From Escherichia phage vB_EcoP-22664UKE3-2, in sequence record MZ234011.1: 40,482 nucleotides of DNA; one strand, 5' to 3'. The notes under the pieces are model-generated. The model saw only the letters and a list, made by a program, of their open reading frames with translations, ran no database searches and was not told where the DNA came from. Of the stretch, positions 1-40,482 are shown piece after piece (the stretch's first letter is position 1; each line of letters opens with the position of its first letter). Made by a program: the position numbers and the translations under genes.

Positions 1-3000
1 ATGCAGGAACGAGAGGAGCGCTCTACGTGGTTCGGTTTCGGTGCGGCTACAGAAGCTGAAGTGAAGAACTCTATGGTCGGCGTGGCTATCCGCGCTGGTC
101 AGACCGAGGACTCACTTGATGTCATTGGCGATGTGTTCAACCCGACCCGCTGGAACAACCATAAGTGGTCTCGTGAGGAGCTAGACCAGATTCGTAACGC
201 TGGGGTTTTGCCTCAGTATTACGGAGTCATTACTGGTGGCTCTCCTCAGAACCTGACCGAGCTTATTAACTTGGCGCTTGAGAACCAGAAGTTGGACCAA
301 GAGAAGGCCAAGGCTGGGACTGGTGCTCAACTGGCGGCTGGTGTGATTGGTGCTGGCGTGGACCCTCTGACCTACGTTCCTATTGCTGGGCAGGTAGGTA
401 AAGGTGGTAAGCTAGTCAACAAGATGTTCACTGTGGCTGCTCAGTCTGGTGCTCTGGCTGGGGCATCCGAGATTGCTCGAACCTCAGTTGCTGGTGGGGA
501 CGCTCATGTTGCTGAAGCTATCCTTGGTGGCGCTCTCTTCGGTGGTGGCATGACTGCTATCGCTGATGGACTAGGCAGAGCCTTAGGTCGCAACACTAAT
601 GAGTTTGCTGGTCCAGCTACACGTTTGGAAGCTCGTGAGACAGCTCGTAACGTTGATGGTCAGGACCTGTCCCGTCTCCCTATTCAGGAAGGTGAGCAGA
701 CCTTTAGTCATCAAGGCGTTAAGTTCGCTGACGTTCCGAATGAGCCGGGAAGTGTACGATTAGAAGACGGTTCAATCCTGATTGGTGAGAACCCTCTGAA
801 CCCTAAGACACGTCAAGTCTTTGACGAAGTGATTGAGCCGGAACGTGCCGCTGCTGGTGTGAACCTTGGTGGACTTACCGAGATTGGCCTGAAGCTGCTT
901 CGGTCTGAGAACCCTGAGATTCGTGGAGTAGCTGCTGACTTAGTGCGTTCACCTACTGGTATGCAGTCTGGGGCCTCAGGTAAAATCGGGACAACTGCGT
1001 CAGACGTGTTCGAGAGACTTCGTTCTGTGGACCATCGGTTCTACAACGACATCGACGATGCGGTTACTGAGGCACTAAAGGACCCGTACTTCCAGACTGC
1101 ATTCTGGCGAGACTCTGGCGCATTCCGTCAGGACATCTACCAGCGTGTGTCTATGGCTATCGAAGATGGTAGCGGAAACCTGAAGGCTGAACTGACTCCG
1201 GGAGAACTGAAAGTCTATGACCTACTGAAGAACCAGTTCGACGCCAAGCGTGAGATGATGGAGAACCCAGCGATGTTTGGTCGTCCAGACGCTCAGTCTA
1301 TCTTTCCGGGTAGCCGCTTCAAGGGAACCTACGTCCCTCATGTGTATAGCAAACAGATGAAGGAGCTGTACATCAAGGAGCTTGGGAGTCCAGAGGCGTT
1401 GCAGGAGGCCATCAAGAAGTCATGGTTGACCAGCTATGCGTCTCGACCTGAAGTCAAGAAACGCGTGGACGAGGCACTTTTAGAGGCTGACCCTACGTTG
1501 ACTCCAGAAGGACTTGCGGCTGCGGTCGATAAGTACGCCAACGATAAGGCTTATGGTATCTCTCACACCGAGCAGTTCGAGCGTTCATCCGTAATGGAGG
1601 AGAACATCAACGGGCTGGTGGGTCTGGAGAACAACAGCTTCCTTGAGGCTCGTAACCTGTTCGATAGCGATATGTCAATCGTTCTTCCTAACGGTCAGAC
1701 CTTCAGTGTCAACAACCTGCGTGAGTGGGACATGGACAAGATTGTCCCGGCCTACAACCGTCGAGTTAATGGTGATATTGCTATCATGGCTGGTACAGGC
1801 AAGACCACGAAGGAAATGAAGGACTTAGTTGAGACCATGATGAACAAGGCTGGCGATGACGGAAAGTTGAAAGGTGAAGTATCTACCTTACGTGACACCC
1901 TGAAGATTCTCACTGGTCGTGCTCGACGTGATGGTGCTGATGATGCGGCCTTCGCTACCGTGATGCGCATGATGACAGACCTATCGTTCTTCGCTAAGAA
2001 TGCCTACATGGGTGTTCAGAACTTAACGGAGATTGGTGGTATGCTGGCTCGTGGTAACGTTCGTGCACTGCTACACGGAGTACCGATGTTCCGTGACCTA
2101 GCCTTCCGTAACAAGAAGGTCGGGGCCTCGGAGATTAAGGACCTGCATAATGTTATCTTCGGTAAAGAATTAGACGACTCAATCCGTCCGTCTAAACAGG
2201 ATGTTATCGACCGTCTGCGATCTTACAGTGACCTTAGTCGTGGTACAGCTACAGCTCTGGGGACTGCTAAGTATTACACTGGTGAACTTGTAGTACGCTC
2301 TCCGTTCACTAAAGTCCTCAACGGTACGACCAACTACCTGTTAGATGCTGGACGTCAAGGCTTCCTGTCTGACATAGTGGAGCATAGCCTGACTGGTAGT
2401 AAGCGTAAGTTCGATGACCGCTGGCTGAAGACCGCTGGTATATCTGACGAGCAGTGGAGTGGAATTAAGTCCCTAATCCGTGAGTCAGTGACTCGTGGGC
2501 CAGACGGGAAGTACACCATCAAGGATAAGAAGGCGTTCAGTCAGGACCCAAGGGCTATGGACCTGTGGCGTATGGGTGACACCATCGCTGACGAGACGTT
2601 ACTCCGGCCTCATAAGCTGTCAAACATGGACGCCAAGGCTTATGGTCCTCTCGCTAAGACTGTCCTTCAGTTTAAGAACTTCGTCATCAAGTCTATCAAT
2701 GGGAGAACCATGCGAACCTTCTATAACGCCACGAAGAACAACAGAGCGATTGACGCTGCACTGTCGACCGTGATGTCTATGGGTCTGGCTGGTATCTACT
2801 ACATGGCTCAGGCGCATGTCAAGGCTTATGCTATGCAGGATGGTCGAGACCGTGACTACCTTAAGCAAGCTCTGGACCCAACGATGATTGGCTATGCGGC
2901 CCTGTCCCGTAGTTCACATCTTGGTGGCCCACTTGGGGTAGCTAACATTCTGGGAGGCATCGCTGGATATGAGGACACTAAGATGCTCCGTTCGTCTATC

Positions 3001-3303
3001 CTACCTCGTTCTCCTACAGAGAAGCCTGAGCGTGCCATCGCGTATGGTGCAGCTACAAGTGACCCTGTGATGAATGTTGTTGGTAACTTCTTGGAGCAGG
3101 TTCCAGCTTTCGGATATGCTGCTAACGTTGGCGCTTCGGCTTACAACTTGGCTGGCTACCTCAAGGCTGATACTCGTGTCAACGAGCGTGACTACATGAC
3201 CGGGATGTATAATACGTTCCGTGAACTGGTTCCGAACGACCCCATTACCCAGAAGCTGCTGCTTGGAACGTTTGAGGAGCAAGGCATCCACATCAAGGAC
3301 TAA
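1..3303 (+). CDS. Internal virion protein D (T7 gp16), C-terminal 1100 aa; 5' part of the gene is at 39898..40482 (frame continuous across the window junction)
   Basis: Translation from base 1 (STWFGFGAATEAEV...TPTRWNNHKWSREELDQIR) aligns with an internal region of T7 gp16 as I recall it; combined length about 1295 aa matches gp16; position after gp15 and before the tail fibre. Confidence 0.9.
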   Translation: MQEREERSTWFGFGAATEAEVKNSMVGVAIRAGQTEDSLDVIGDVFNPTRWNNHKWSREELDQIRNAGVLPQYYGVITGGSPQNLTELINLALENQKLDQEKAKAGTGAQLAAGVIGAGVDPLTYVPIAGQVGKGGKLVNKMFTVAAQSGALAGASEIARTSVAGGDAHVAEAILGGALFGGGMTAIADGLGRALGRNTNEFAGPATRLEARETARNVDGQDLSRLPIQEGEQTFSHQGVKFADVPNEPGSVRLEDGSILIGENPLNPKTRQVFDEVIEPERAAAGVNLGGLTEIGLKLLRSENPEIRGVAADLVRSPTGMQSGASGKIGTTASDVFERLRSVDHRFYNDIDDAVTEALKDPYFQTAFWRDSGAFRQDIYQRVSMAIEDGSGNLKAELTPGELKVYDLLKNQFDAKREMMENPAMFGRPDAQSIFPGSRFKGTYVPHVYSKQMKELYIKELGSPEALQEAIKKSWLTSYASRPEVKKRVDEALLEADPTLTPEGLAAAVDKYANDKAYGISHTEQFERSSVMEENINGLVGLENNSFLEARNLFDSDMSIVLPNGQTFSVNNLREWDMDKIVPAYNRRVNGDIAIMAGTGKTTKEMKDLVETMMNKAGDDGKLKGEVSTLRDTLKILTGRARRDGADDAAFATVMRMMTDLSFFAKNAYMGVQNLTEIGGMLARGNVRALLHGVPMFRDLAFRNKKVGASEIKDLHNVIFGKELDDSIRPSKQDVIDRLRSYSDLSRGTATALGTAKYYTGELVVRSPFTKVLNGTTNYLLDAGRQGFLSDIVEHSLTGSKRKFDDRWLKTAGISDEQWSGIKSLIRESVTRGPDGKYTIKDKKAFSQDPRAMDLWRMGDTIADETLLRPHKLSNMDAKAYGPLAKTVLQFKNFVIKSINGRTMRTFYNATKNNRAIDAALSTVMSMGLAGIYYMAQAHVKAYAMQDGRDRDYLKQALDPTMIGYAALSRSSHLGGPLGVANILGGIAGYEDTKMLRSSILPRSPTEKPERAIAYGAATSDPVMNVVGNFLEQVPAFGYAANVGASAYNLAGYLKADTRVNERDYMTGMYNTFRELVPNDPITQKLLLGTFEEQGIHIKD

Positions 3304-3321
3304 ACTATCACTATAGGAAAC
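3299..3321 (+). promoter_or_regulatory. Phage RNAP promoter upstream of tail fibre gene (TAAACTATCACTATAGGAAA), predicted +1 near 3316
   Basis: Matches the window's recurrent 20-bp T7-type promoter core; overlaps the gp16 stop codon. Confidence 0.6.
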
Positions 3322-3367
3322 TGGAGGCGCTACCATAGGTCTCCATTTAAATCACAAAGGAGGCATA

Positions 3368-5899
3368 ATGTCCACGATTACACAATTCCCTTCAGGAAAC
3401 ACTCAGTACAGGATTGAGTTCGACTACCTAGCCAGAACGTTTGTTGTTGTTACGCTGGTGAATAGCTCTAACCCTACCCTGAACCGTGTACTGGAAGTTG
3501 GTCGAGATTACCGATTCCTTAATCCAACGATGATTGAGATGTTGGTTGACCAATCAGGTTTCGACATAGTTCGTATTCACCGTCAGACTGGAACTGACTT
3601 AGTGGTAGATTTCAGGAATGGCTCAGTGTTGACAGCTAGTGACCTGACCAATTCAGAGCTTCAGGCTATCCATATTGCAGAAGAAGGTCGAGACCAAACG
3701 GTTGACTTAGCGAAGGAATATGCCGATGCTGCTGGTAGCTCTGCTGGCAACGCTAAGGATAGCGAGGACGAAGCACGCCGAATCGCTGCGAGTATCAGGG
3801 AAGCTGGTCTAATTGGCTATATTACCCGTCGCTCCTTCGAGAAAGGCTACAACGTTACAACATGGAGCGAGGTCCTGCTATGGGAAGAGGATGGTGATTA
3901 TTACCGCTGGGATGGTACGCTTCCAAAGAACGTTCCTGCTGGTTCAACTCCTGAAACTTCCGGTGGGATTGGATTAGGTGCGTGGGTTAGTGTTGGTGAT
4001 GCTGCTTTAAGAAGTCAGATTTCAAACCCGGAAGGGGCAATACTCTACCCGGAATTGCAGATGGCAAGATGGCGTGATGAGGGTGATGTTCGAGGCTGGG
4101 GTGCTAAAGGGGATGGTGTAACAGATAGTACGGAGAATATAGCTGCTTCACTAAATTCTCAAAAAGCTGTCGTAGCATCAGAAGGTGTATTCTCTAGTTC
4201 TGGTATTAATAGTAATTACTGTAACTTAGACGGTAGAGGTAGTGGCGTGCTAAGTCACCGTTCCAGTACAGGTAACTACTTAGTATTTAACAATCCACGT
4301 ACAGGTCGCTTAAGTAATATTACGGTAGAAAGTAATAAGGCGACTGATACAACTCAGGGACATCAGGTATCTCTTGCCGGTGGAAGTGATGTTACTGTAA
4401 GTGACGTTAACTTCTCAAACGTTAAAGGTACTGGTTTCAGTTTAATCGCATACCCTAATGATGCGCCACCTGATGGACTTATGATTAAAGGCATTCGAGG
4501 TAGCTATTCCGGATATGCTACTAATAAGGTAGCAGGATGCGTACTTGCTGACTCATCAGTTAACTCCCTCATAGATAACGTCATTGCTAAGAACTACCCT
4601 CAGTTCGGAGCAGTAGAGTTGAAAGGTACAGCCCGTTACAACATAGTAAGTAATGTTATAGGGGCAGATTGCCAGCATGTAACTTACAACGGCACTGAAG
4701 GGCCAATAGCTCCTTCTAATAACCTTATCAAGGGGGTGATGGCTAATAACCCTAAGTATGCAGCGGTTGTTGCAGGCAAAGGAAGTACGAACTTAATCTC
4801 AGACGTGCTCGTAGATTACTCAACTTCTGATGCTAGGCAGGCTCATGGTGTTACCGTAGAAGGGTCTGATAACGTCATAAATAATGTGCTTATGTCAGGA
4901 TGTGATGCTACTAACTCTTTAGAACAAGGGCAGACTGCTACAATTGCACGCTTTATAGGTACAGCTAATAACAACTATGCGTCTGTATTTCCTAGCTACA
5001 GTGCTACAGGTGTTATTACTTTCGAATCCGGCTCTACCCGTAACTTCGTAGAGGTAAAGCACCCTGGAAGGAGGAACGACCTTCTCAGTTCTGCTAGTAC
5101 TATTGACGGTGCAGCTACTATTGACGGCACTAATAATAGTAACGTAGTGCACGCACCCGCCTTAGGGCAGTACATAGGTAGTATGTCAGGTAGGTTCGAA
5201 TGGCGGATTAAGTCCATGTCACTCCCTTCAGGCGTTCTTACTTCTGCTGATAAGTACAGAATGCTTGGGGATGGTGCTGTGTCATTAGCTGTAGGTGGTG
5301 GTGCATCTTCTCAAGTTCGACTATTTACTTCTGATGGTACTTCTCGGGGAGTATCACTCACCAACGGTAACGTGCGTCTTCCTACCAGTAGCACAGGTTA
5401 TTTGCAGTTAGGTTCTGATGCAATGACCCCAGATAGTACTAATACATACGCATTAGGTTCCGCAAGTAGAGCATGGTCTGGCGGTTTTACTCAATCAGCC
5501 TTCACTGTTGTCTCAGATGCTAGGGATAAAACAGAGCCTCTTAATATCTCAGATGCTTTACTGGATGCTTGGTCTGAAGTTGACTTTGTGCAGTTTCAGT
5601 ACTTGGACCGAATTGAGGAGAAGGGTGCAGACTCAGCTAGATGGCACTTCGGCATCATCGCTCAGCGAGCTAAGGAGGCCTTCGAACGTCACGGTATAGA
5701 TGCACATCGCTATGGCTTCCTGTGCTTCGACAATTGGGATGATGTATACGAGGAAGATGCCAATGGCTCTCGTAAACTGATTACACCAGCAGGTTCCCGC
5801 TACGGTATTCGTTACGAGGAAGTACTGATATTAGAGGCTGCGTTGATGCGGCGTACTATTAAGCGTATGCAGGAAGCATTAGCTGTTATGTCTAAGTGA
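3368..5899 (+). CDS. Tail fibre / tailspike (gp17-like): T7-type N-terminal adaptor + pectate-lyase-like beta-helix + C-terminal intramolecular chaperone (peptidase S74-like)
   Basis: N-terminal ~150 aa (YRIEFDYLARTFVVVTL...VDFRNGSVLTASDL...IHIAEEGRD) resembles the T7 gp17 N-domain; WGAKGDGVTDSTENIAA is a pectate-lyase-superfamily motif; C-terminus has SDARDK (Ser/Lys at i, i+5) followed by a chaperone-like domain; RBS AAGGAGG upstream. Confidence 0.85.
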   Translation: MSTITQFPSGNTQYRIEFDYLARTFVVVTLVNSSNPTLNRVLEVGRDYRFLNPTMIEMLVDQSGFDIVRIHRQTGTDLVVDFRNGSVLTASDLTNSELQAIHIAEEGRDQTVDLAKEYADAAGSSAGNAKDSEDEARRIAASIREAGLIGYITRRSFEKGYNVTTWSEVLLWEEDGDYYRWDGTLPKNVPAGSTPETSGGIGLGAWVSVGDAALRSQISNPEGAILYPELQMARWRDEGDVRGWGAKGDGVTDSTENIAASLNSQKAVVASEGVFSSSGINSNYCNLDGRGSGVLSHRSSTGNYLVFNNPRTGRLSNITVESNKATDTTQGHQVSLAGGSDVTVSDVNFSNVKGTGFSLIAYPNDAPPDGLMIKGIRGSYSGYATNKVAGCVLADSSVNSLIDNVIAKNYPQFGAVELKGTARYNIVSNVIGADCQHVTYNGTEGPIAPSNNLIKGVMANNPKYAAVVAGKGSTNLISDVLVDYSTSDARQAHGVTVEGSDNVINNVLMSGCDATNSLEQGQTATIARFIGTANNNYASVFPSYSATGVITFESGSTRNFVEVKHPGRRNDLLSSASTIDGAATIDGTNNSNVVHAPALGQYIGSMSGRFEWRIKSMSLPSGVLTSADKYRMLGDGAVSLAVGGGASSQVRLFTSDGTSRGVSLTNGNVRLPTSSTGYLQLGSDAMTPDSTNTYALGSASRAWSGGFTQSAFTVVSDARDKTEPLNISDALLDAWSEVDFVQFQYLDRIEEKGADSARWHFGIIAQRAKEAFERHGIDAHRYGFLCFDNWDDVYEEDANGSRKLITPAGSRYGIRYEEVLILEAALMRRTIKRMQEALAVMSK

Positions 5900-6082
5900 G
5901 TAATACTGGAAAGAATCGAAGCCAGACTTTCTGCTCTTGAACAGAAGTAATAAACAAACCATTTTGCCATTAAGTTGGTGGGGTAGATGTTAGAAGGTTG
6001 GTGTGGTATAGACTAACTACACGCTGACCAACGTAGGTAACAACTTTGGGTCACGGACGACCCGCTTTAAACTGGAGGTTTT

Positions 6083-6277
6083 ATGATTGAGTTAGACTTC
6101 AAGAATGAGGTCCTTAAAGCCTCTCCTATCGTCGGGACCGCTGCGGCTGATGGTGCCAGTCGGTTCTTCTTCGGACTTACACTGAACGAATGGTTCTACG
6201 TTGCAGCTATCGCGTACACCGTTGTCCAGATTGGTGTGCTAGTCTACAAAACGATTAAAGGAGGTGGTAAAACATGA
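6083..6277 (+). CDS. Holin (T7 gp17.5-like, class II)
   Basis: MIELDFKNEVLKASPIVGT...FFFGLTLNEWFYVAAIAYTVVQIG closely matches T7 gp17.5 as I recall it; RBS GGAGG upstream. Confidence 0.85.
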   Translation: MIELDFKNEVLKASPIVGTAAADGASRFFFGLTLNEWFYVAAIAYTVVQIGVLVYKTIKGGGKT

Positions 6278-6638: not shown

Positions 6639-7082
6639 ATGCTCGAATTTTTAAAGAGAGCGGCTCCGTGGTTACTTGCAGCAGTGATGTTTGCTGGTGG
6701 CTACCACACCGCTAACAATAAGTGGGAGGCTAAGGTAAATGCAGAATACACCTCGAATCTTAAGGCATCGGAGGATACAAGGCTTGCTGTCCAAGCTGAA
6801 GTCAACAAAGTGTCCAAACGGTTTCAGGACGAAATGTCCTCGCTGGAAGGCAGCACTGACAGGATTATTGCTGACCTTCAGTCTGACAATAAGCGGCTGC
6901 GCATCCGAGTCAAACCTACGAGTGGAACCACGCAAAGTGACGGTCGATGCGTCATTGATGGTTACGCCGAACTTGACGAACGAGATGCTAAACGTCTTAT
7001 CTCCATCGGACTGAAAGGGGACGCTTGGATTAAAGCACTACAGGATACTATCCGCAAACTTCAACAAGACAAGGAGAAATGA
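6639..7082 (+). CDS. Rz-like i-spanin (T7 gp18.5-like)
   Basis: MLEFLKRAAPWLLAAVMFAGGYH... with RIIADLQSDNKRLRIRVKPT and DERDAKRLISIGLKGDAWIKALQDTIRKLQ matching T7 gp18.5; N-terminal TM segment. Confidence 0.85.
   Translation: MLEFLKRAAPWLLAAVMFAGGYHTANNKWEAKVNAEYTSNLKASEDTRLAVQAEVNKVSKRFQDEMSSLEGSTDRIIADLQSDNKRLRIRVKPTSGTTQSDGRCVIDGYAELDERDAKRLISIGLKGDAWIKALQDTIRKLQQDKEK
6739..7014 (+). CDS. Rz1-like o-spanin lipoprotein embedded in +1 frame of Rz (T7 gp18.7-like)
   Basis: Embedded ORF with lipobox LTISGCAS and C-terminus VDASLMVTPNLTNEMLNVLS resembling T7 gp18.7; exact start uncertain. Confidence 0.7.
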   Translation: MQNTPRILRHRRIQGLLSKLKSTKCPNGFRTKCPRWKAALTGLLLTFSLTISGCASESNLRVEPRKVTVDASLMVTPNLTNEMLNVLSPSD

Positions 7083-7519
7083 TGCTCAGTGATTCGTATT
7101 TCTATGATGAGTCCAGTAAGTCTGGCCTGAAGTCCCTGCGTTCTGGTAAGGATGTGGGGTGTGTGGGAAACCACGGGTATTATCAGGTAGGAACTCGACG
7201 TCATGGACTCCTGCTGGCCCATAGAGTCGTCTGGGAGCTAACCAACGGTCCTATACCAGAAGGGATGGAGATTGACCATATCGACCGCTGCCGGACTAAC
7301 AACAGGCTGGACAACCTCCGGCTAGTTACTTCAAGCGAGAACTCCTGCAACACCTCAGGACATTCTGACTCAAAGACTGGAGTTAAGAACATATCGTTCC
7401 ATCAGAATGGCTACGCTATCGAGGTCATGCGTAAGGGGGTCCGTATGCGAACAACACGTCCTACTTTAGAGGAGGCTATCTCTGTCCGGGACCTAATGCT
7501 GGAGGGACTCTATGTCTAA
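7079..7519 (+). CDS. HNH homing endonuclease
   Basis: [56 protein letters not shown] is a typical HNH motif; sits between Rz and large terminase where T7 has no gene; overlaps terminase start. Confidence 0.75.
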
Positions 7520-39466: not shown

Positions 39467-39916
39467 ATGAAGAACGGGACAGCCAGTGAGAGACTGGCAG
39501 AACTGTCAGTAGCTGAAGAGTCTGGCTGTATCCGATTCACAGGCCACTTAGACGGAGAAGGATACGGAAGGATAATGGTGGCTAGGGTTAAGTATATGGC
39601 ACATCGTCTCTCCTACTCCATAAATAAGGGGCCAATACCAGATGGCTATGTTGTTAGGCATAAATGTGATAATCCATCATGCATAAATCCTGAACACCTT
39701 GAAGTAGGAACGCAGGCTGACAACATTGCAGATAAGGTATCCAGAGGCCGACAGGCAAGAGGTAGTGGAGCAGGCAGAGCTATACTGACAGAGGAATCTG
39801 TTAGGGAAATACGCTCCAGTCCATTAAAAGTATCTGAGCTTTCCACCTTATACGGGGTAAGCGTCGTTTCCATACGAAATATATTGAGGAGAAAGACATG
39901 GCAACACGTGGCGTAA
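39467..39916 (+). CDS. HNH homing endonuclease inserted between gp15 and gp16
   Basis: GCIRFTGHLDGEGYGRIMVARVKYMAHRLSYSINKGPIPDGYVVRHKCDNPSCINPEHLEVGTQADN is a classical HNH motif; overlaps the gp16 start by 19 nt. Confidence 0.8.
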   Translation: MKNGTASERLAELSVAEESGCIRFTGHLDGEGYGRIMVARVKYMAHRLSYSINKGPIPDGYVVRHKCDNPSCINPEHLEVGTQADNIADKVSRGRQARGSGAGRAILTEESVREIRSSPLKVSELSTLYGVSVVSIRNILRRKTWQHVA

Positions 39917-40482
39917 GGAACGCAAATCCGGGCAATATCCGTAAGTCCAAAGACCAGTGGGAAGGTGCTATAGGCGATGATGGTGCATTCGTTATCTTCG
40001 ACAGTCCTGAATCTGGGGTCCGAGCATTAGCGAAAAACCTTCAAAGCTACGGTCGCCAAGGTTATGACTCTATCGAGAAGATTATCAACAGATGGGCACC
40101 TCCGAGCGAGAACGACACTCAGTCCTACATCGACTCGGTTGTATCTGCTACTGGTATTCCTGCAACTCAAAGTCTCGACCTATCTGACCCTGACACCCTG
40201 TCTTCTCTGGCACAAGCTATCAGCTTCCATGAGACAGGCTCACGGTACGACCCTGAAGTCTATCAGAAGGGAGTCGCACGGGCACTCAACGGCATTAGCC
40301 CAAAGACTCCACCAGTAAGCGCTAACGTATTTGACGCACTCACGGAAGGACTCAAGTCTAAACCTAAAGTAGCTCTGGGTGAGAACCTTCCGACCGCTGC
40401 TGGTCTTAACATTGAGGGTCAAGCACCTGAAGCTCCCAACGAATCGTTCGGTGAGATGTTCTATAAGTCTACTGGCGAGACC
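39898..40482 (+). CDS. Internal virion protein D (gp16), N-terminal 195 aa; continues in frame at window position 1
   Basis: ORF runs off the window end with no stop; its last residues (...FGEMFYKSTGET) and the first residues of the window (MQEREERSTWFGF...) are contiguous relative to T7 gp16 (...WETHGETLDEYNSRSTFFGF). Confidence 0.85.
   Translation, partial: MATRGVRNANPGNIRKSKDQWEGAIGDDGAFVIFDSPESGVRALAKNLQSYGRQGYDSIEKIINRWAPPSENDTQSYIDSVVSATGIPATQSLDLSDPDTLSSLAQAISFHETGSRYDPEVYQKGVARALNGISPKTPPVSANVFDALTEGLKSKPKVALGENLPTAAGLNIEGQAPEAPNESFGEMFYKSTGET

Follow-up and report, generated by a model that had tools for sequence, protein, structure and literature searches.

The window, that is, the whole stretch of 40,482 bp that was analysed, is the complete genome of a Kayfunavirus, a K1F-like relative of T7, namely Escherichia phage vB_EcoP-22664UKE3-2 (MZ234011.1), and shares 99% identity with the Kayfunaviruses 101120B2 and PM129. 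We examined its gene 17, an open reading frame on the plus strand (positions 3368–5899) that starts with ATG and encodes a precursor of 843 amino acids and 90.4 kDa. Gene 16 (1–3303) precedes it, and genes for the holin, the small terminase, Rz and the large terminase follow; it thus occupies the gene 17 slot within a T7-like late operon, with the gene order of K1F. A phage promoter and a ribosome-binding site lie upstream. The promoter motif occurs nine times in the window, always on the plus strand, as compared with 0.03 copies expected from shuffled sequences. The features of the locus are as follows.

3304–3321, plus strand: phage RNA-polymerase promoter ACTATCACTATAGGAAAC, an exact consensus copy, 47 nt upstream of the gene 17 ATG
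3357–3363, plus strand: ribosome-binding site AAGGAGG, read from the sequence, 4 nt upstream of the ATG at 3368
3368–5899, plus strand: putative K5-lyase tailspike precursor (gene 17), matched over its full length by PDB 9vvr_A, and by phrog_14895
3368–3832, plus strand: T7 gp17-type tail-attachment (anchor) domain and Ala-rich helical neck, residues 1–155 (PF03906, 7boz/8dsp, K1F gp17)
3833–4000, plus strand: Tail_spike_N (TSP1/Gp66, T4 gp10-like) domain, residues 156–211 (Pfam PF18668)
4001–4096, plus strand: Kayfunavirus-type linker, residues 212–243, part of the K1F-like segment
4097–4132, plus strand: WGAKGDGVTDST motif, the module joint, residues 244–255 (blastn junction; motif in K1F gp17 and KflA)
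4133–5512, plus strand: predicted K5 (heparosan) lyase beta-helix and then a triple-beta-helix stalk (about residues 640–715), residues 256–715 (KflA identity, 2x3h)
5513–5896, plus strand: intramolecular chaperone and autoprotease (Peptidase_S74), 14.8 kDa, residues 716–843 (PF13884, 3gud, 3gw6)
5513–5515, plus strand: predicted catalytic Ser716, aligned with S911 of endoNF
5528–5530, plus strand: predicted catalytic Lys721, aligned with K916 of endoNF
5902–5950, plus strand: dead remnant of the 3′ end of a K1F-type endosialidase gene (…LERIEARLSALEQK-stop), 49 nt, a 3′ recombination scar

The gene 17 product corresponds to a known tailspike

The product aligned without gaps, from residue 1 to residue 843, to the 843-residue 'Tail spike protein' of PDB 9vvr (chain A; E 0, 1811 bits), with an identity of ~96% as counted from the alignment. 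The two proteins are equal in length and domain order and differ by about 30 scattered substitutions, most of them within the lyase domain; they are effectively the same protein, the deposited one presumably coming from a sister phage. The entry contains 18 chains, which amount to six trimers. A literature text search for '9VVR' returned unrelated papers only and none on that entry. Among protein families, phrog_14895 ('tail spike protein') matched residues 209–843 with 1297.7 bits, and a search of NCBIfam with the protein returned no family model. Given their E values (5e-14 for the S74 profile, 1.4e-288 for 2x3h and 0 for 9vvr), the domain and homologue matches are not due to chance.

The source paper of 22664UKE3-2, which belongs to a phage collection for the therapy of E. 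coli urinary tract infection (UTI), annotates this gene, CDS 002, as 'K5 lyase', and most deposited relatives label it 'hypothetical protein'. Judged from these matches, the product would be an already-known K5 (heparosan) lyase, an ordinary protein whose structure has already been solved. The sequence-only reading, which had described a chimeric tailspike, was essentially right in substance, but what it described is a known enzyme and not a new one.

The N-terminal part is of the K1F type

The Pfam model Phage_T7_tail (PF03906) matched residues 10–115 (E 1.9e-15) with 57.4 bits against a cut-off of 25.2; here and below, the gathering scores of the Pfam models were used as the cut-offs for a profile match. 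The T7 gp17 structures 7boz and 8dsp aligned to residues 6–116 (7boz, E 8e-16). The proposed resemblance of the first ~150 residues to the T7 tail fibre is thus real, but it extends over a shorter region than had been supposed. The next domain, Tail_spike_N (PF18668; residues 156–211, E 3.2e-19, 69.2 bits against a cut-off of 25), had been overlooked, although the three modules that had been proposed are all present and the protein is demonstrably chimeric. PDB entries 4oj5, 5w6h and 9occ matched residues 149–263. The Tail_spike_N domain is also found in K1F gp17, to which residues 1–263 are 94% identical. Across residues 206–243, which include the linker, the identity was 100% with ZG49 and 87% with the lyase of the Gamaleyavirus UE-S5b, as compared with only 10.5% with KflA of coliphage K5A.

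The central domain is a close homologue of the K5 lyase KflA

The WGAKGDGVTDST motif had been taken as a pectate-lyase signature. It is indeed present at residues 244–255, but it cannot by itself prove a beta-helix, since the K1F endosialidase, whose fold is a beta-propeller, contains WGAKGDGVTD as well; the motif therefore marks the module joint rather than the fold. The profile search that had been suggested as a check came out negative, as PF12708 (Pect-lyase_RHGA_epim; residues 241–353, E 0.0096) scored 16.2 bits, under its gathering score of 27. The K1F endosialidase was similarly sub-threshold against this model, with 18.2 bits contributed by the motif alone (residues 244–263). Since the Pfam pectate-lyase test formally fails, the fold was established via a solved homologue instead. 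Residues 256–715 are identical to K5A KflA at 442 of 460 positions (96.1%; 18 substitutions), and the crystallised KflA (PDB 2x3h, 'K5 lyase') matched residues 242–716 with an E value of 1.4e-288. This identity bears out the earlier proposal of a beta-helix polysaccharide lyase in the middle of the protein. According to the literature, KflA is a trimeric K5 lyase with a beta-helical fold, in which the central helix gives way to a triple-stranded beta-helix or beta-prism; the corresponding stalk region of the gene 17 product aligned to residues 843–910 of the K1F endosialidase, endoNF. At 96% identity to 2x3h, the gene 17 product most probably inherits its fold, a trimer of right-handed single-stranded parallel beta-helices, and its enzymatic activity, K5 specificity, cleavage and trimeric state are likewise expected by homology.

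Among beta-helix tailspikes with the same N-terminal cap motif, hydrolases are numerous. It could accordingly be argued that the central domain is a depolymerase of the glycoside hydrolase type and not a lyase, given that WGAKGDGVTD and a weak PF12708 match are common to hydrolase tailspikes and occur even in the K1F endosialidase. However, KflA has been characterised as a lyase, and the catalytic region shares 96% identity with it; we regard a hydrolase as next to inconceivable.

More room is left for a KflA-type spike whose substrate has been shifted or broadened by substitutions, such that the host capsule would be of another type than K5, or of other types besides K5. The 18 positions at which residues 256–715 depart from KflA could be read in this way, as could the comparison with the sibling 101120B2: of 18 differences, 16 lie within the lyase domain, and residues 1–255 contain none. 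The reported plaquing ranges also differ, 22664UKE3-2 covering 61% of UTI isolates and 101120B2 34%. Against this, the remainder of the genome also differs by ~1% between the siblings and includes an extra HNH gene, so that the difference in plaquing range may have its cause outside the spike. Given the frequencies of capsule types, 61% is a wider range than expected for a strictly K5-specific phage. Nevertheless, a protein that is 96% identical to an enzyme of established specificity normally keeps its substrate, and we consider a changed specificity improbable.

The gp10-like domain raised the question of a second spike. A branched two-spike system was ruled out, as the genome has no second spike gene: all open reading frames of at least 120 amino acids belong to the standard T7-like gene set, with no further tailspike gene among them, and nothing but the 49-nt remnant lies between gene 17 and the holin gene. 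The gp10-like domain is nevertheless conserved at 94% in Kayfunavirus spikes, although no second spike is encoded. Conceivably, but in our estimate very doubtfully, it is a latent docking platform for a tailspike supplied in trans, either by a co-infecting phage or as a prophage K5 lyase such as ElmA. Latent docking, if it occurs, would widen the host range transiently and could help to explain the unusually broad plaquing range.

The C-terminal domain carries a predicted self-cleavage site

Pfam Peptidase_S74 (PF13884) matched residues 716–776 (E 5e-14) with 52.8 bits against a cut-off of 22, and the C-terminal domain was also matched by PDB 3gud (E 2.5e-22) and 3gw6 (E 6.7e-19). The self-processing domain that had been proposed from an SDARDK motif, with the S74 profile as its check, is supported on both counts. 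SDARDK occupies residues 716–721 (nucleotides 5513–5530), and S716 and K721 align with S911 and K916 of endoNF, the catalytic dyad required for cleavage. Although the pattern S-x4-K occurs four times in the protein, only S716/K721 falls inside the S74 domain, and this Ser/Lys dyad is invariant in all six Kayfunavirus relatives examined. Residues 716–843 are 94.5% identical to K5A KflA, with the SDARxK cleavage motif in both proteins. K5 lyases are among the four phage protein families known to have a C-terminal intramolecular chaperone domain, and the K1-5 lyase is made as a 67 kDa protein that matures to 52 kDa.

The serine that had been placed near position 5512 is encoded at 5513–5515. A released domain beginning at this residue agrees with the data on T5 pb1 and K1F, in which the cleaved bond is N-terminal to the Ser, but an ambiguity of one residue remains, because in the model of phi29 gp12 the mature protein ends with the Ser, and the chain of 2x3h ends at the residue equal to S716. 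The released fragment may thus start at Ser716 or one residue later. In the known systems, an Arg from the preceding triple beta-helix (R897 in endoNF, R1250 in T5) completes the active site. The gene 17 product has R701 in a conserved LGxxSxR stretch, offset by one residue from endoNF R897 in the ungapped alignment; KflA is arranged alike.

This offset, together with the sequence of 9vvr being given at its full 843 residues, could be taken to mean that the C-terminal domain stays uncleaved and serves the mature spike as a receptor-binding knob at its distal end. The length of a deposited sequence is, however, uninformative as to which residues were resolved. Moreover, the dyad is intact as well as invariant in the six relatives, the K1-5 lyase undergoes maturation, and the crystallised KflA chain stops at the Ser. 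We consider retention of the domain highly unlikely and favour its removal by self-cleavage.

Junctions and a remnant point to a cassette exchange

By blastn, positions 3301–4126 are K1F-like (96.1%), positions 4121–5903 are K5A kflA-like (95.8%), and positions 5902–6098 are again 95.5% identical to the end of K1F gene 17 and the intergenic region. The junctions therefore lie at 4121–4126 on the 5′ side and at 5902/5903 on the 3′ side. The counterparts of the WGAKGDGVTDST motif are WGAKGDGVTDDT in K1F gp17 and FGAAGDATTDDT in KflA. The 5′ crossover maps to nucleotides 4121–4126, within the motif. We propose that, in a K1F-like gene 17, the endosialidase part gave way to a kflA cassette of the K5A type, with the 5′ crossover in the shared GAxGDxxTD motif and the 3′ crossover 213 nt short of the endosialidase gene's end. 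The 49-nt sequence beyond gene 17 is what is left of that gene, and the same remnant is found at successive stages of decay in relatives. Expression of the in-frame remnant by read-through of the TGA codon was considered but given little weight, as the chaperone domain, which is shed, would gain only ~17 residues, and the parts of the remnant that have been deleted vary among relatives. With its junctions and decaying remnant, the locus offers a clean and datable case of a T7-like phage exchanging a cassette at a short conserved motif and so switching from the K1 to the K5 capsule.

Discussion

The analysis established the domain composition of the gene 17 product and its homologies, the aligned dyad, the junctions and the remnant. 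We hold with high confidence that gene 17 encodes a homotrimeric K5-lyase tailspike that arose by cassette exchange and combines a T7-type anchor, a gp10-like spacer, a KflA beta-helix and a self-cleaving chaperone. In the mechanism that we propose, each tail would carry six such homotrimers. Residues 1–155 would plug the trimer into the tail, as in T7 gp17, and residues 156–243 would form the gp10-like spacer domain and the linker. The KflA-type right-handed beta-helix (residues 256–715) would bind the E. coli K5 capsule (heparosan, GlcA-GlcNAc repeats) and cut it by beta-elimination, allowing the phage to tunnel to the outer membrane. Residues 716–843 would drive trimerisation of the stalk and then remove themselves via Ser716/Lys721, such that processing would yield a mature spike of ~75.6 kDa and a released fragment of ~14.8 kDa. 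The model predicts a K5-capsulated host, which is of relevance to the UTI therapy collection. The chief value of the locus lies in annotation and illustration, as a well-characterised capsule lyase with solved structures is mostly deposited as a 'hypothetical protein'; current understanding of the system is unchanged.

Among known systems, KflA of coliphage K5A (Y10025, PDB 2x3h) and its K1-5/Vectrevirus orthologues (gp46) match gene 17 in the lyase beta-helix, the stalk and the S74 chaperone. KflA, however, has 632 residues and attaches by a short N-terminus to a separate adapter protein (gp37 in K1-5), whereas in gene 17 the cassette is fused directly to a 255-residue K1F-type anchor, gp10-like domain and linker; the N-terminal 40-odd residues of KflA are unrelated to gene 17, as reflected in the low identity over residues 206–243. 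K1F gp17 (endoNF), from the type Kayfunavirus, has the overall plan in common with gene 17, namely an anchor, a catalytic part, a triple-beta-helix stalk and an S74 chaperone, and is likewise flanked by genes 16 and 17.5. Its catalytic part, in contrast, is a beta-propeller sialidase for the K1 capsule (Pfam End_beta_propel and others) where gene 17 has the K5 lyase beta-helix, and the stalk-plus-chaperone parts are only 29% identical.

The K5 lyases of the Gamaleyaviruses (N4-like, Schitoviridae) UE-S5b, UE-S5a, UE-M3 and UE-M6 match nucleotides 3982–5909 of the window at 93% identity. The common stretch covers the Kayfunavirus-type linker and the joint (residues 206–255), the lyase and the chaperone, whereas the N-terminus of these proteins is not T7-like and their gene adjoins an endosialidase gene in a 74-kb genome. 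The same cassette, with the Kayfunavirus linker included, has moved into an N4-like phage family. Finally, in G7C (gp66/gp63.1) and the Klebsiella KP32 group A phages, the first spike has a tail anchor and a T4 gp10-like domain before the depolymerase, as does gene 17. These branched systems comprise two spikes and the 22664UKE3-2 genome encodes one; since it has no second tailspike gene, its arrangement is that of the single-spike T7/K1F type.

A tailspike of the K5-lyase type

Gene 17 was found exactly where the sequence-only reading had placed a chimeric receptor-binding protein, and the Ser of its SDARDK motif, put near 5512 by that reading, is encoded at 5513-5515. The gene follows a ribosome-binding site and an exact copy of a promoter motif that recurs in the window; the core of this motif, ACTATCACTATAGG, occurs nine times, always on the + strand, compared with 0.03 occurrences expected by chance.

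Gene 17, its signals and its motifs
3368..5899, + strand: gene 17 ORF, 843 aa
3357-3363, + strand: ribosome-binding site AAGGAGG
3304-3321, + strand: phage promoter before gene 17
3304, 9378, 13217, 18405, 19370, 27497, 30318, 31298 and 36081, + strand: copies of the promoter core
4097-4132 (aa 244-255), + strand: motif WGAKGDGVTDST, referred to below as the WGAKGDGVTD motif
5513-5530 (aa 716-721), + strand: motif SDARDK

We judged Pfam matches of the protein against the curated cut-offs, and three domains lay above them.

Pfam domains of the tailspike protein
aa 10-115: Phage_T7_tail, E 1.9e-15
aa 156-211: Tail_spike_N (TSP1/Gp66 type), E 3.2e-19
aa 716-776: Peptidase_S74, E 5e-14

The profile search thus recovered the self-cleaving chaperone of the sequence-only reading as Peptidase_S74, but not its pectate-lyase-like domain, as PF12708 scored 16.2 bits on the tailspike, below the Pfam cut-off of 27; Tail_spike_N had been left out of that reading. 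With these corrections its interpretation is supported. The protein is already known and its structure already solved. It gives a gap-free, full-length alignment with PDB 9vvr_A ('Tail spike protein', 843 aa), from an entry of 18 chains, and aa 209-843 match phrog_14895 ('tail spike protein', 1297.7 bits, PHROGs). Residues 242-716 match PDB 2x3h ('K5 lyase', E 1.4e-288), whose chain ends at the Ser equivalent to S716. Identity to KflA, the K5 lyase of coliphage K5A, is 96.1% over aa 256-715 and 94.5% over aa 716-843. KflA, whose substrate is the GlcA-GlcNAc polymer that makes up the K5 capsule, is described as a trimeric beta-helical lyase with a triple-stranded beta-helix or prism after the central helix.

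The C-terminal chaperone

The Ser-Lys dyad reported to be needed for self-cleavage of the K1F endosialidase (endoNF), S911 and K916, is matched in the alignment by S716 and K721. Four families of phage proteins are known to contain this chaperone domain, K5 lyases among them. The stretch LGSASRAWSGGFTQSAFTVVSDARDKT was invariant in all six relatives compared. In endoNF the third active-site residue, R897, is contributed by the triple beta-helix; R701 is the candidate counterpart here, one position off in the ungapped alignment, and KflA is arranged alike.

T5 pb1 is cleaved between Thr1263 and Ser1264, which leaves the Ser on the chaperone, as is also reported for K1F. Because of these two cases, the better-supported option is that the released domain would start at Ser716, as the sequence-only reading predicted, with an uncertainty of one residue because in the model of phi29 gp12 the mature protein ends with the Ser. 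The precursor has a predicted mass of 90.4 kDa, which processing would divide into 75.6 kDa (aa 1-715) and 14.8 kDa (aa 716-843); for the K1-5 lyase, processing from 67 kDa to a mature 52 kDa has been reported.

A conserved joint between modules

The sequence-only reading had taken the WGAKGDGVTD motif as a pectate-lyase signature marking a beta-helix. The first 263 residues of the tailspike are, however, 94% identical to K1F gp17, motif included (there WGAKGDGVTDDT), and the catalytic part that follows in this K1-specific endosialidase phage is a beta-propeller sialidase (Pfam End_beta_propel and related models). In K1F gp17, the PF12708 match is confined to the motif's 20 residues. Since a beta-propeller enzyme carries the motif and PF12708 touches nothing else, the motif is no proof of a beta-helix; judged from these alignments, it is a conserved joint that links the attachment module to whichever catalytic module comes next.

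Recombination junctions and an endosialidase remnant

At the nucleotide level, K1F-like sequence (3301-4126, 96.1%) gives way to K5A kflA-like sequence (4121-5903, 95.8%) and then returns (5902-6098, 95.5%). These boundaries place the 5′ crossover within the codons of the WGAKGDGVTD motif. Directly 3′ of the lyase TGA, in the same reading frame, lies the leftover end of an endosialidase gene, followed by a normal intergenic region as far as the holin gene.

Remnant
5902-5950, + strand: dead remnant of the end of a K1F-type endosialidase gene, 49 nt, encoding …LERIEARLSALEQK-stop

The relatives retain differing parts of one 213-nt remnant, forming a decay series. The sibling phage 101120B2 has all 213 nt, labelled there as a 54-aa 'tail fiber protein'; in Midid, R1, IME177, PDP21P1 and ZG49 just the first ~40 nt are left, with an identical left boundary; and in the window and SHAK7854 just the last 48 nt survive. 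In the window lineage, the alignment and sequence show the pentamer ACTGG flanking the deletion. The series fits a single ancestral event in which a kflA cassette replaced an endosialidase cassette, after which independent deletions would have occurred; the direction follows from K1F, where the sequence that is non-functional here still belongs to a working gene.

The K5-lyase gene of ZG49 (NC_047777, 2501-5741) has a partial internal duplication, either genuine or an artefact of assembly. The gene contains window nt 4707-5416 in two copies and is thereby split into two ORFs, one of 686 aa that lacks the chaperone domain and one of 386 aa that has it. In the 'UNVERIFIED' record of vB_EcoM_SHAK7854 (OR594182), the feature table appears to be ~2.57 kb out of register with the sequence, the 2532-nt tailspike-gene match lying under features named holin, terminase and others and a 2532-nt 'tail spike' feature lying upstream of it.

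Genome context and siblings

The window holds an entire T7-like genome that shares 99% identity with the Escherichia phages vB_EcoP-PM129 and vB_EcoP-101120B2, members of the genus Kayfunavirus. In the paper describing its collection, CDS 002 is already called 'K5 lyase', and the isolation host is reported as a urinary E. coli, O25b and presumably ST131. Circular permutation of the record divides gene 16 between the two window ends: the gene starts at 39898 and crosses the ends, so the ORF at 1-3303 is incomplete. The two parts (195 + 1100) give 1295 aa, the length of K1F gp16; relatives annotate a transglycosylase or endolysin-domain protein.

Gene 16 and HNH_3 endonuclease genes
39898-40482 then 1-3303, + strand: gene 16 (internal virion protein), ATG start, open 195-codon frame running on
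7079-7519, + strand: HNH_3 homing endonuclease gene, 146 aa (Pfam E 1.8e-21)
39467-39916, + strand: second HNH_3 endonuclease gene, 149 aa (Pfam E 1.2e-13)

The first endonuclease gene lies between the Rz-like spanin and large terminase genes, a position at which K1F has no gene. The second is inserted between genes 15 and 16, overlapping the gene 16 start by 19 nt; its absence from 101120B2 makes up most of the length difference in that region. The tailspikes of these two siblings differ at 18 amino acids, 16 of which fall in the lyase domain (window 4133-5512), with aa 1-255 identical; of the codon differences, 18 are non-synonymous and 20 synonymous. The collection paper describes point mutations that built up in gene 17 during phage breeding, and plaquing ranges of 61% for 22664UKE3-2 versus 34% for 101120B2.

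Proposed mechanism and comparison with known spikes

The sequence comparisons above show the domain make-up, the homologies, the dyad and the recombination history; activity, specificity and cleavage are inferred here from homologues 94-96% identical. The gp17-type anchor would fix six trimers on the tail, a count drawn from T7 and from the chains in 9vvr. The beta-helix would bind the K5 capsule and cleave it by beta-elimination, giving the phage access to the cell surface. The C-terminal domain would nucleate the triple beta-helix as the spike assembles and then cut itself off.

Tail_spike_N is a T4 gp10-like module, and in G7C and Klebsiella KP32-group phages a second tailspike docks on such a domain. 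We found no second spike gene in the window genome: all ORFs of at least 120 aa are members of the standard T7-like set, and the stretch from gene 17 to the holin gene holds only the remnant. K1F also has the domain. The arrangement is therefore the simple single-spike one of T7 and K1F, in which Tail_spike_N most likely serves as a structural spacer.

The lyase cassette of gene 17 also occurs in the 74-kb, N4-like Gamaleyavirus UE-S5b and its relatives, which match window nt 3982-5909 at 93% identity and have an unrelated N-terminus before it. In UE-S5b (PP301341, 3564-5918) it includes the linker of Kayfunavirus type (window protein aa 206-255), suggesting that an already chimeric gene was transferred across families. 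In these phages an endosialidase gene adjoins the lyase gene, a pairing that suggests a dual K1/K5 spike set.
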